Shown: positions 43,283 to 46,536, counted from the stretch's first letter. The stretch is DNA of 64,000 bases from an uncultured Candidatus Micrarchaeota archaeon (GCA_963760615.1 CAVXDX010000004.1:32001-96000); one strand, 5' to 3'. Notes: generated by a model not told the origin, from the sequence alone. Made by a program: numbers and translations.

Positions 43283-44947
43283 TCAGAACCTGCTCCTCTT
43301 CACATAATGGGTGTGTAGCAGCTCCTCAGCCTTTTTGGAGAGTGGCTTTCCGAGCATCTCATCATAAATCTTCTTCACAATCGGATTTTCATGAGACCTG
43401 CGGAGCTTGGAGCTGCGGTCAGCAGAGTAAATTGCTTCAGTCCTCTTCCTTAGTATTTCAGGGTCGCGGTAGACCGGTTGCCCGCCCCCCCCGATGCATC
43501 CTCCAGGGCATGTCATTATCTCTATGAAGTGGTATTTGTCTTTCTGCGCGATGAGCTTGCGCGCGTTTGCGCCTCCATGCGCACAAGCAAACTTGATTTT
43601 CTTTCCTTTCAGTGTTATGCTGCCCTCCTTTATCCCCTTCATTCCTCGTATCTCTGAAAACTCAAGGTTCTCCAGCTCCTTGCCTGTTGCAAATTTATAC
43701 GCAGTTCTGAGAGCTGCTTCCATGACCCCTCCTGTCGCGCCGAAAATCACGCCAGCACCTGTTGAAATACCCAAAGTAGGGTCAAACTCCTCGTCATGCA
43801 GGGAAGCAAAATCAATATCCTTCATCTTTATGAGCTTGCCAAGCTCTCTGGTGGTGAGCACATAATCAACACCGCTTTTCATCTCCGGTCTGGTGGACTC
43901 AAACTTCTTCGCAGTGCACGGCATAATAGAGACAACAACTATCTTCTTGGGGTCTATGCCTGCTTTTTTTGCATAATAAGTCTTGATGAGCATTCCAAGC
44001 ATCTCATGGGGAGACTTGCAGGTGGACATGTTCTTCAGCAAGTCATGGTAGAAGAACTCCATCATGAGTATCCAACCCGGGCAGCATGTTGTTATCATTG
44101 GAAGCTTGCCGCCCTTCTCAACCCTCCTCAGCAGTTCAGATGCTTCCTCCATTATCGTCATATCCGCTCCCAAATCAACATCAAACACCTTTTCGAACCC
44201 GCACCTGCGGAGTGCAGCAACAGTTTTTCCCGTGACGAGCGTGCCAGCCGGCATTCCGAAAAGCTCGCCTAGTGCAGCGCGGATGGATGGCGCAACCTGT
44301 GCAACCACATACTTTTTACTGTCGTTGAGCGCAGCCATCACACCCTCCAGATGAGAGTACTCCGAAATGGCTCCCACAGGGCAGTTGAGTATGCACTGGC
44401 CGCAGCGTATGCAGGCAACATCTGCAAGAGGATGCTCCCAGTAGGGGGTGATATGCTCGTTGTGCGCCCTGCTTGCAAAGTCTATGGCAAAAACTCCCTG
44501 CACATCTGCGCACACGCGCACGCATCTCCCACAGTTTATGCACTTGTTATCATCTCTTACAACTGCAGCTCCCAAGTCAGGTTTGTATCCCTTTATCTGT
44601 GGGAATCTGGCTTTCCTCATTCCCACTTCATTGTAGATTTCGCACACTTCCAAATCATCCACAAGTCCACAGGAAGGCTCGGGCATCATGAGCTCCATGT
44701 TCAGCTTCCTTGCCTTCACAATTCGCTCGGAATTTGTGACAATGGAAGCGCCCTCCCTTGGCCTTGTAGAGCATGCAGTTACCAGCTTGCCATCCATCTC
44801 CACGAGGCATACACGGCAGCGCGCCTCTGGGAAGAGGCTGGCATGGTAGCAAAGAGTAGGAATAGTGATGCCGTTCTCTCGGCAGATGTCAAGAAGCGAC
44901 TTGCTTCCGTCCACCTCAATTCCCTTTCCATTGAGCTTTATCTTCAT
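43283..44947 (-). CDS. hydA: [FeFe]-hydrogenase catalytic subunit (group A-type)
   Basis: H-cluster motifs TTCCPGW, MPCTAKKFE, EIMTCPGGCIGGGG; N-terminal [2Fe-2S] and two [4Fe-4S] motifs; start at ATG 44947. Confidence 0.95.
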   Translation of the reverse strand: MKIKLNGKGIEVDGSKSLLDICRENGITIPTLCYHASLFPEARCRVCLVEMDGKLVTACSTRPREGASIVTNSERIVKARKLNMELMMPEPSCGLVDDLEVCEIYNEVGMRKARFPQIKGYKPDLGAAVVRDDNKCINCGRCVRVCADVQGVFAIDFASRAHNEHITPYWEHPLADVACIRCGQCILNCPVGAISEYSHLEGVMAALNDSKKYVVAQVAPSIRAALGELFGMPAGTLVTGKTVAALRRCGFEKVFDVDLGADMTIMEEASELLRRVEKGGKLPMITTCCPGWILMMEFFYHDLLKNMSTCKSPHEMLGMLIKTYYAKKAGIDPKKIVVVSIMPCTAKKFESTRPEMKSGVDYVLTTRELGKLIKMKDIDFASLHDEEFDPTLGISTGAGVIFGATGGVMEAALRTAYKFATGKELENLEFSEIRGMKGIKEGSITLKGKKIKFACAHGGANARKLIAQKDKYHFIEIMTCPGGCIGGGGQPVYRDPEILRKRTEAIYSADRSSKLRRSHENPIVKKIYDEMLGKPLSKKAEELLHTHYVKRSRF

Positions 44948-44951
44948 ACCC

Positions 44952-46121
44952 TCACTTCTTTTTCCCAAGGTACGCCTCATAGTCTTCGGGGAAATGCTCT
45001 AGGCTTGTGAGTATGTGTGTGCCGCACGTCTCCCCAAGTCCGCAAAGCGAGGTATCCTGGATATGCGTGGCCAGCTCGCGCAGAATCTGCAAATCCTTCT
45101 TCTCGCCTTCACCACTCCTTATTTTCTTCAGCAGGTTGAGCATGCGGATGGTGCCCTCTCTGCATGGCGTGCACTTGCCGCACGATTCATACGTGTAGAA
45201 TTTCGCAATTGAATACACAATATCCACAATGTTGTGAGTCTCATCTATGAAAATTATGCTGTAGTTCCCATGCTGGCAATCTTCCTTGCATATTGCTTCT
45301 GGAGTGATGCTCATGTTCTTGTCAACAGGCATTATTCCCCCAGCGCAGCCAAAAGACATTGCCTTGAGCTTTTTCTCTGGGCGGGCAACATCTATGACAG
45401 AAGACATCTTCACGCCCAATGGAAACTCGTATACCCCCGGATTCTTGATGTTGCCTGAGAGGGAGAACAGCCTCAGGTTGGCATCCCAGTAGTCAAACAG
45501 CACAGCCTGTGCAGCGCAGGTGAGCGTCTCCACATTGTTTATTAGCGTCGGCTTGCCCCACAGCCCCTGCCTTGTCGGGTTTGGCGGCTTATACATCGCA
45601 GTCCCTCTGAAACCCATGATAGACTGGACAAGGGCTGTGGACTCGCCGCATACGTATGCGCCCGCTCCGCGAACAATTTCTATGCTCACGCCTTTCATAT
45701 CCGCGCGTGCAAGAATGTCCTCAATCTGTCCCTGCAGCTGGGGGTGGAGGTAATCATACTCGCCTCGCAGGTATACGAAGCACCTCTTCGCACCAATTGT
45801 ATAGGAGGCAATCAGAATTCCCTCAATAAGCGTCTGTGGGTTGCATCTGATGATAAGTTTGTCCTTGAAGCTGCCCGGCTCCCCCTCGTCGGCATTGCAC
45901 ACAACGAACCGTTCGTCTGCAGGTGTATCTCTGCAGGTTCGCCACTTCTGGGCGGTTGAGAAAGCCGCGCCTCCCCTTCCCACAAGCCCCTTCTTCTCCA
46001 AAATGGAGAGTACTCCCTCTGAGCCGAGCATACGCGCCTTCTCAAGCGCCTCCAAATTTGTCTGGTGGAATATCTGCATGAGCTCACTTCTTTTTAATCT
46101 TCTTTCTTCTTGAATTGGCAC
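44952..46121 (-). CDS. hydB: NuoF-like flavoprotein (diaphorase) subunit
   Basis: GRGGAAF, CNADEGEPGSFKD, GAGAYVCGE, SLBB domain, SCGKCTPCREG...CGLG. Confidence 0.92.
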   Translation of the reverse strand: MPIQEERRLKRSELMQIFHQTNLEALEKARMLGSEGVLSILEKKGLVGRGGAAFSTAQKWRTCRDTPADERFVVCNADEGEPGSFKDKLIIRCNPQTLIEGILIASYTIGAKRCFVYLRGEYDYLHPQLQGQIEDILARADMKGVSIEIVRGAGAYVCGESTALVQSIMGFRGTAMYKPPNPTRQGLWGKPTLINNVETLTCAAQAVLFDYWDANLRLFSLSGNIKNPGVYEFPLGVKMSSVIDVARPEKKLKAMSFGCAGGIMPVDKNMSITPEAICKEDCQHGNYSIIFIDETHNIVDIVYSIAKFYTYESCGKCTPCREGTIRMLNLLKKIRSGEGEKKDLQILRELATHIQDTSLCGLGETCGTHILTSLEHFPEDYEAYLGKKK

Positions 46122-46536
46122 GCAGCTTCTTCAGGAGCAGCTGCACTCTCTCCACTGTCATCTTGGTGTGCGGCTCTCCATTTATGAGCATCGCAGGAGC
46201 CTCGTCGCAGCACCCGATGCAGGAAGTTTTGTAGAGGGAAAACATACAGTCCTTGGAGGTTTCCCCTATCCTCACGCCTATCTCTTTCTCAAGGAACTTC
46301 TCGAGCTTCATTCCGTTATTCAGAATGCAGGACGGCGAGCCGCAGATCTCAATAACATGCCTGCCCTGGGGCTCGGTGTGGAACATTGTGTAGAATTTGA
46401 CCACTCCGAAAAGCCTGGAGATGGGTATATTCTGCTCTACAGAAATCTTCTTGAGCATCTGCTCAGAAATATAGCCGTGCTTGTCCTGCGCCTCGTGCAG
46501 GATGTTCATAAGCAAAGGAGCGTTTTTACCTTTCAT
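46084..46536 (-). CDS. hydC: NuoE-like [2Fe-2S] subunit
   Basis: FYTMF, CGSPSC, CIGCC..AP. Confidence 0.92.
   Translation of the reverse strand: MKGKNAPLLMNILHEAQDKHGYISEQMLKKISVEQNIPISRLFGVVKFYTMFHTEPQGRHVIEICGSPSCILNNGMKLEKFLEKEIGVRIGETSKDCMFSLYKTSCIGCCDEAPAMLINGEPHTKMTVERVQLLLKKLRANSRRKKIKKK

Follow-up and report, generated by a model that had tools for sequence, protein, structure and literature searches.

We report that the operon hydC-hydB-hydA, found at 43283-46536 on the minus strand of a 64,000-nucleotide stretch of DNA (hereafter the window) from an uncultured Candidatus Micrarchaeota archaeon, probably encodes a [FeFe] hydrogenase of the NAD(H):H+ type that is soluble, consists of three subunits and does not bifurcate electrons, its wire being minimal and linear; this reading rests on analogy with biochemically characterized enzymes. 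By gene organization, with hydA adjoining a NuoF-like hydB and a NuoE-like hydC, the operon falls within HydDB group A3, and it belongs to the trimeric 'group A3' set already published for the DPANN archaea (Huang 2021, PMC8421398; Greening 2024, PMC11216029). These papers predict bifurcation, which the sequence features of this operon contradict. A first-pass annotation of the window had proposed a ferredoxin-independent NADH:H+ enzyme. The non-bifurcating part of this proposal stood at the sequence level, by published criteria and in two phylogenetic trees, while the ferredoxin independence is something that we infer, and we rate 'ferredoxin-independent in vivo' lower than 'non-bifurcating'.

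The evidence centers on HydB (375 amino acids; 44952-46079, minus strand), a bare NuoF-like subunit for flavin mononucleotide (FMN) and NAD(H) in which the only Pfam domains are Complex1_51K (PF01512), SLBB (PF10531) and NADH_4Fe-4S (PF10589). Losey 2020 (PMC7311640) distinguished bifurcating from non-bifurcating enzymes by the residues at the NADH site (Ala or Glu together with Met, versus Ser or Thr together with Lys, Ser or Ala), by Phe versus Tyr near the FMN, by GGPSG in the SLBB domain and by extra Fe-S domains. According to Schut 2022, true Bfu enzymes require the BfuB clusters B2-B5, which the non-bifurcating Syntrophomonas wolfei enzyme lacks, and Furlan 2022 found the C-terminal clusters of HydB in all characterized bifurcating enzymes but not in the non-bifurcating ones. 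All four published discriminators (extra domains, NADH site, FMN site and GGPSG) are in the non-bifurcating state in the window HydB. Its NADH-site motif EPGSFKD (residues 81-87; 45861-45881, minus strand), already noticed in the first-pass annotation, has Ser and Lys where bifurcating enzymes have Ala or Glu and Met; its FMN-site motif GAGAYVCGE (45642-45668, minus strand) has Tyr where proteins with the bifurcating signature have Phe; and in its SLBB domain GGPSG is absent, the position being taken by GCAGG. The protein has neither an N-terminal [2Fe-2S] nor a C-terminal 2x[4Fe-4S] domain, so that clusters B2-B5 are missing. The first-pass annotation had said as much of these domains, and the Pfam result and a count of Cys residues agree with it: the C-terminal extension is 6 amino acids long and the N-terminal one, counted from the true start, 5, and neither contains a Cys. 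Its single [4Fe-4S] cluster, of the N3 type, has four Cys ligands (C314, C317, C320 and C360; 45033-45182, minus strand), which are invariant in the HydB alignment. When the window HydB was aligned with the 150 best representatives of an exhaustive search, DPGAFMD, GAGAF and the GGPSG region mostly co-occurred, and proteins with this bifurcating signature usually had a C-terminal extension of about 72 residues with about ten Cys.

Phylogenetic analysis separated the window HydB from the bifurcating proteins. We built one tree with FastTree (151 sequences) and another with IQ-TREE (65 sequences, with named loci added). In both, the proteins with the bifurcating signature formed one clade (support 96-97), and the window HydB fell into a separate clade of short archaeal proteins (support 97-98), which are 361-378 amino acids long, one of them with an N-terminal fusion. 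The Hyd1B-type proteins of Syntrophomonadaceae (L008, P0130 and P0262) formed a third clade (support 99), and the IQ-TREE analysis placed the window HydB outside the S. wolfei Hyd1B lineage. The two named members of the clusters near the window HydB come from a Thermoplasmata and a Micrarchaeota metagenome-assembled genome. The signature is conserved among close relatives: the 120 closest HydB proteins are all short (369-410 amino acids); 115 of them have EPG[TS]FKD, 118 have Tyr at the FMN site, and none has GGPSG. Named homologs (65-96% identity) belong to Micrarchaeota, Woesearchaeota, Pacearchaeota and Nanoarchaeota, and at least 16 HydA/HydB pairs have the same longest contig. A scan of a genome collection with the HydB alignment returned mostly bacterial NuoF proteins (34-42% identity), with no archaeal loci among the matches listed. 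The reduced wiring, which had been singled out as notable, is common to the whole DPANN clade.

The catalytic subunit HydA (554 amino acids; 43283-44947, minus strand) contains the Pfam domains Fer2_4, a 2x[4Fe-4S] domain, Fe_hyd_lg_C (PF02906) and Fe_hyd_SSU (PF02256), and scores 501.8 bits against TIGR02512 (cut-off 406), which places it in [FeFe] hydrogenase group A. Against NF040763 ('NADH-dependent [FeFe] hydrogenase, group A6') it scores 744.3 bits, below the cut-off of 765, compared with 884 for the Syntrophomonadaceae HydA, 772.7 for one Woesearchaeota homolog and 716-736 for three others; the 'NADH-dependent' in the name of this model was not used as evidence for the enzyme type. The three H-cluster motifs, L1 (TTCCPGW, 44072-44092), L2 (MPCTAKKFE, 43898-43924) and L3 (43475-43522), all on the minus strand, are intact, as the first-pass annotation had it, and the H-cluster Cys residues C299, C355, C491 and C495 are kept in all 122 aligned HydA proteins. 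The ligands of the N-terminal [2Fe-2S] cluster, FS2 (C44, C55, C58 and C70; 44771-44851, minus strand), are kept in 120-122 of the 122; the two ferredoxin-type [4Fe-4S] clusters, FS4A and FS4B (44378-44542, minus strand), have eight Cys, and every sequence keeps them all.

The exception is the site of the [4Fe-4S] cluster that has a His ligand (FS4C/A4), of which a relic is left at 44639-44701 (minus strand). The motif H-x3-C-x2-C-x5-C had been reported missing; we found that two of its four ligands, the His and one Cys, are gone and that the region is 4-5 residues shorter. In an alignment to Thermoanaerobacter kivui HydA1 and Clostridium pasteurianum CpI, a gap stands opposite the His ligand, Val107 takes the place of one Cys, and C104 and C113 are the two Cys that are left. 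PF10588, the domain of the His-ligated cluster, was undetected in the window HydA even at E<=1, as it was in three other DPANN HydA proteins; the positive controls, a Syntrophomonadaceae HydA and a Micrarchaeota HydA of the type I described below, scored 62.8 and 52.5 bits, respectively. Among the window HydA and its 120 closest homologs (65-96% identity; n=121), the full H-C-C-C ligand set is found in none, and in 48 the region is devoid of both Cys and His; it is 2-5 residues shorter than the bacterial reference in all 121 and 4-5 residues shorter in 106. About 20 of the 121, for example a Woesearchaeota B3 protein, retain two Cys and one or two His, and this subset may have a remnant site. 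One drifting site amid strong constraint is the pattern of a working enzyme that would no longer use the His-ligated cluster. In HydABC of Thermotoga maritima, the corresponding A4 cluster belongs to a conserved 'Y-junction' and connects two protomers across 9 A, and in CpI the His-ligated cluster is the proposed entry point of ferredoxin. With its loss from HydA, a single unbranched wire would therefore remain.

The strong constraint on HydA also bears on whether the operon might be an inactive relic whose H-cluster cannot be built without HydE, HydF and HydG. The absence of hydE, hydF and hydG, which had been noted for the window, extends to the whole 1.14-Mb genome (91% complete, so that absences from it are provisional): models of hydE and hydG matched nowhere, and that of hydF matched only generic GTPases (38 bits versus a cut-off of 325). 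HydG was also missing from all three genomes of the same genus that we searched. Against these absences stand the H-cluster Cys and accessory-cluster ligands, kept across the 121 sequences while the lost site drifts freely, and the report of active archaeal [FeFe] hydrogenases from maturase-free genomes (Greening 2024, PMC11216029). The absence of maturases is in fact known as a rule in archaea: that study found the full set in only 5 of 130 hydrogenase-bearing archaeal genomes and proposed an alternative route. We consider it extremely improbable that the enzyme is such a relic. Maturase-like genes do occur elsewhere in the phylum. In a sample of 301 genomes of the window's phylum, HydG scored above its curated cut-off in 24 (471-597 bits versus 312) and an H-domain was found in 64, but both occurred together in only 3; no H-domain was found in five HydG-positive genomes re-searched at E<=0.01. 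In one genome of the window's order (G039; L103:3543-5986), HydG (540 bits) is immediately preceded by a HydE-like gene (234 bits, cut-off 254.6); archaeal housekeeping genes surround the pair, and HydF is not adjacent. Where HydG occurs without HydA, either these radical-SAM pairs make something else, or the making and the using of the cofactor are split between cells.

By homology to the solved HydABC complexes and to complex I, NADH would pass a hydride to the FMN of HydB, from which single electrons would cross the [4Fe-4S] cluster of HydB to the N-terminal [2Fe-2S] cluster of HydA and travel via the pair of ferredoxin-type [4Fe-4S] clusters, to reduce protons at the H-cluster; the reaction should also be able to run in reverse. 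The [2Fe-2S] cluster of HydC would be off this path, like N1a of complex I. A low-potential branch would be lacking, as HydB is without the extra clusters, including those of the mobile C-terminal domain, and HydA is without the His-ligated cluster. The proposed core wire, FMN-[4Fe-4S]-[2Fe-2S]-2x[4Fe-4S]-H-cluster, and the gene order are shared with the bifurcating HydABC enzymes of T. maritima, T. kivui and Acetobacterium woodii (7P5H, 8A6T and 8A5E), from which the window enzyme differs by lacking the A4 cluster and, in HydB, the [2Fe-2S] at the N terminus, the 2x[4Fe-4S] bridge domain at the C terminus, and DPGAFMD, Phe and GGPSG. With the M3-type enzyme CpI, the window HydA shares the H-domain, the proton-path residues and the ligands of FS2 and FS4A/B; unlike it, CpI is monomeric and ferredoxin-linked and keeps FS4C, the His-ligated cluster of M3 enzymes.

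The nearest known counterparts of the window operon include enzymes of syntrophic bacteria. S. wolfei Hyd1ABC, which is biochemically NADH-dependent, ferredoxin-independent and non-bifurcating (PMC5626996, PMC7311640), was represented in our comparison by the Syntrophomonadaceae locus L008. Its HydA, HydB and HydC are similar in size to those of the window (about 574, 407 and 160 versus 554, 375 and 150 amino acids), and its HydB is likewise a bare NuoF with EPGTYKD in place of EPGSFKD, Tyr and no GGPSG; it is also the best bacterial match of the window HydB among the matches listed, at 40% identity. By contrast, L008 HydA keeps an intact H-x3-C-x2-C-x5-C motif and is only 48% identical to the window HydA, and, as described above, the HydB proteins of the two fall into different, well-supported clades. 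Thus, the first-pass description of an enzyme of the kind found in syntrophic bacteria fails as a statement of descent: by its sequence, the hydCBA enzyme would work like S. wolfei Hyd1ABC but represent a separate, more reduced lineage and not an ortholog. Syntrophus aciditrophicus HydAB has the same non-bifurcating HydB signature and makes H2 from NADH without ferredoxin (PMC7311640), but it is dimeric, its NuoE-like part being fused to HydB, whereas hydC of the window is a separate gene. In Caecomyces churrovis, a hydrogenase together with a plain NuoF/NuoE pair like that of the window provides a non-bifurcating route from NADH to H2, as shown experimentally (mBio 2026, PMC13556243). That system is eukaryotic and hydrogenosomal, its NuoF descends from mitochondrial complex I, and the organism lacks pyruvate:ferredoxin oxidoreductase, whereas the window genome has a 2-oxoacid:ferredoxin oxidoreductase.

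We also read eight long-HydA loci among the 64 Micrarchaeota genomes with an H-domain, and found operons of two types. Type II loci (G136, G081, G122 and G229) are window-like: the His-ligated cluster is gone and HydB is short, with EPGTFKD and Tyr. Type I loci (L104:3829-7841 in G206, L105:4572-8819 in G178 and L111:3795-7689 in G137), two of which, those of G206 and G178, belong to the window's own order, have an intact His-ligated cluster motif in all three HydA proteins and a HydB of 539-614 amino acids with DPGAFMN and GGPSG, whose N-terminal domain is [2Fe-2S]-like; in two of these three HydB proteins we detected Phe at the FMN site. Type I HydB lacks a C-terminal 2x[4Fe-4S] domain and ends in only two Cys, so that type I has the bifurcating-type signature without the bridge domain. 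HydA proteins of the two types are 46% identical. The eighth locus (G298) has a HydA without the His-ligated cluster and no HydB on the stretch fetched. In the Micrarchaeota loci read, the His-ligated cluster of HydA thus co-varies with the motif type of HydB. That its loss tracks the loss of a bifurcating-type HydB hints at a role of this cluster in the bifurcating mechanism. Since two operon types occur in Micrarchaeota alone, 'archaeal A3' is not one thing.

Several observations weigh against a non-bifurcating, ferredoxin-independent enzyme. The criteria were derived from a few bacterial enzymes and are applied by analogy to an archaeal HydB clade without a characterized member; in type I HydB the motifs occur without the C-terminal ferredoxin domain, so that the coupling of motif and domain is not strict; and the best solved match of the window HydA is the bifurcating T. 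kivui HydA1 (577 bits). The redox economy of the genome points the same way. It has genes for glyceraldehyde-3-phosphate dehydrogenase (GAPDH), for free ferredoxins of 59 and 62 amino acids and, on contig 13, for the alpha and delta subunits of a 2-oxoacid:ferredoxin oxidoreductase. A search of the genome turned up neither a [NiFe] hydrogenase nor an Nfn-type Fer4_20 domain, nor a second protein of the Complex1_51K or RnfC type. Reduced ferredoxin is therefore left without an obvious outlet, which would argue for some ferredoxin input to the hydrogenase and keeps two other readings alive.

The first of these is that the operon encodes an electron-confurcating or bifurcating group A3 HydABC, which would oxidize NADH and reduced ferredoxin together to make H2. 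The hydC-hydB-hydA organization is that of A3, DPANN operons of this kind are classed as bifurcating A3 by both Huang 2021 and Greening 2024, and Greening 2024 inferred confurcation from the same lack of another ferredoxin sink; the HydA match to T. kivui belongs on this side as well. The assignment in these papers was, however, built on gene organization. Huang 2021 described a NuoF-like gene with only FMN, SLBB and one [4Fe-4S] domain, yet labeled it bifurcating A3, and Greening 2024 modeled the HydB and HydC cofactors on formate dehydrogenase and not on HydABC. With a HydB that lacks all of the extra clusters, is non-bifurcating in its NADH-site and FMN-site residues and at the GGPSG position, and lies outside the bifurcating clade, and with no small Fe-S gene in the operon, we regard confurcation as quite improbable. 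We also considered that a free ferredoxin might replace the missing C-terminal domain of HydB. For this role the genome offers no candidates but ordinary small ferredoxins encoded away from the operon, and since the N-terminal cluster and the site residues of HydB are missing too, we rejected the idea.

The second reading is of a non-bifurcating enzyme with two uncoupled donors, NADH acting via HydB and reduced ferredoxin passing its electrons straight to a cluster exposed on HydA or HydC, so that both redox pools would be discharged through a single hydrogenase. It would give the ferredoxin an outlet, and monomeric relatives such as CpI accept ferredoxin electrons at surface clusters. Removal of the loop of the His-ligated cluster could conceivably expose the junction clusters. 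Yet the proposed ferredoxin entry of CpI is the very cluster that the window HydA has lost, and the [2Fe-2S] cluster of HydA is expected to face HydB, which make a two-donor enzyme improbable in our view.

The NAD(H):H+ enzyme that we favor might also work in vivo mainly in the direction of H2 uptake, supplying NAD(P)H to a host-dependent cell in H2-rich sediment. Characterized non-bifurcating enzymes are reversible, the transfer of electrons from H2 to NAD+ is downhill, and a genome search found no lactate/malate dehydrogenase-type Ldh_1_C domain. GAPDH genes and the 2-oxoacid oxidoreductase, on the other hand, indicate a fermentative, reductant-producing metabolism, and no H2-dependent energy-conserving machinery was found, so that uptake as the main direction seems rather unlikely. 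Coenzyme use (which may be of NAD or NADP), the in vivo direction and the need for low H2 are features of the hydCBA enzyme that we infer. As to the GAPDH genes, a C-terminal GAPDH domain is matched at C7:102437-102920 in two adjoining stretches (39 and 123 model positions) lying in different open frames, perhaps because of an assembly error or a frameshift; contig 13 carries another GAPDH-like gene, this one intact, near the 2-oxoacid oxidoreductase.

The three genes are intact, co-directional open reading frames (ORFs) arranged head to tail. The first, hydC (46084-46536, minus strand), encodes a NuoE-like, thioredoxin-fold [2Fe-2S] subunit of 150 amino acids (PF01257, 142.7 bits) that has both Cys ligand motifs, C-x4-C at 46327-46344 and C-x3-C at 46207-46221. 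The lengths of 389 and 565 amino acids given for HydB and HydA in the first-pass annotation are those of the maximal ORFs, as hydB (44952-46121) is readable back to a GTG at 46121 and hydA (43283-44980) to an ATG at 44980. We set the start of HydB at Met15 (46079) from the called homologs and an identical called protein of 375 amino acids (P0279), and that of HydA at Met12 (44947) from called homologs, which have 554-555 amino acids; the lengths become 375 and 554, and HydB is short all the same. With these starts, a 4-nucleotide gap lies at both gene junctions (46077-46089 for hydC/hydB and 44945-44957 for hydB/hydA), each of which reads AAGAAGTGA, four bases, then ATG. The two junctions thus match in their spacing, in the stop codon and in the two codons before it. 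A TATA-like box, AAATATATAA (46561-46570, minus strand), read from the sequence 25-34 nucleotides upstream of the hydC start codon and within the 63-bp divergent intergenic region, is a putative promoter element. On the other side of this region, in the opposite orientation to hydC, lies a membrane protein gene (46600-47163, plus strand), whose product matched no family in a Pfam search. The figure legends of Greening 2024 (PMC11216029) define hyd6TM, which partners group A hydrogenases.

A bacterial contig wrongly binned with an archaeal genome, one way in which the first-pass annotation could have been misled, was rejected. The window is part of a 142-kb contig in a genome of 16 contigs (2.6% contaminated), and the operon is flanked by archaeal markers: an adjoining deoxyhypusine synthase gene, two PurP genes, CDC48 and an archaeal-type topoisomerase I. 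SRP54 on the same contig scores best against the eukaryote/archaeal-type model, and among HydA homologs the closest, at 96% identity, bears the name Candidatus Micrarchaeota. A 101-nucleotide tRNA at 33389-33489, matched by Rfam (63 bits) and not reported by ARAGORN, probably carries an archaeal intron. A same-genus genome, G103 (96% complete, 2 contigs), has no H-domain. The distance from the ZIP transporter gene to tRNA-Leu is 1.7 kb in that genome (L116, G103:C1:1031500-1037500) versus 7.2 kb in the window (42308-49313), and the deoxyhypusine synthase gene, hydCBA, the divergent membrane protein gene, a SIMPL-domain gene and a 323-amino acid ORF are all missing at the syntenic site. Thus, the hydrogenase cassette occupies a variable segment beside a tRNA gene. 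The 323-amino acid ORF (48342-49313) and two others of 503 (54040-55551) and 593 (61126-62907) amino acids had no NCBIfam match at E<=1e-10, and the first of them had no Pfam match either. Elsewhere in the window, 5688-9104 encodes an 1138-amino acid protein with parallel beta-helix repeats as its sole family match, probably a surface or adhesin-type protein.

While the operon itself has been published, its non-bifurcating reading, the clade-wide loss of the His-ligated cluster and the independent descent of HydB have not, as far as we searched; no paper combining 'non-bifurcating' and 'DPANN' was found in the literature searched. The DPANN hydrogenase papers describe the absence of maturases and the hyd6TM neighbor, but the loss of the His-ligated cluster was found in the text of neither, nor does either use the term 'NADH-dependent'; Syntrophomonas is absent from the text of Greening 2024. 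We put forward, as a proposition with about even chances, that the whole DPANN 'bifurcating group A3' clade, which makes up the most widespread [FeFe] hydrogenase of archaea, is an independently evolved non-bifurcating NAD(H):H+ enzyme with a single wire that has lost the His-ligated cluster of the Y-junction. At 554 + 375 + 150 amino acids, with five accessory Fe-S clusters and the H-cluster, the window enzyme would have the smallest NADH-linked [FeFe] hydrogenase layout in our analysis, and its natural loss of the junction cluster offers a ready-made test of the role of that cluster.

The distinction matters because, when H2 is fairly high, a confurcating enzyme can still release it, whereas an enzyme that uses NADH only can do so at no more than a few pascals; 2.2-40 Pa H2 was measured for the S. 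aciditrophicus enzyme, and <10 Pa is quoted for S. wolfei. A cell with an NADH-only enzyme would therefore be tied to an H2 consumer. The dependence on an H2-consuming partner that the first-pass annotation had drawn would follow from the non-bifurcating HydB signature, which is supported at the sequence level, and it keeps the standing of a prediction. If the non-bifurcating reading is true, H2 transfer would be a concrete basis for the dependence of DPANN archaea on hosts or partners. If it is true of the whole clade, these ultra-small cells would dump NADH as H2 only while a neighbor or host holds H2 at a few pascals, or else H2 would charge their NAD(P)H, and models of DPANN fermentation, for which genome papers now assume bifurcation, would need revising.

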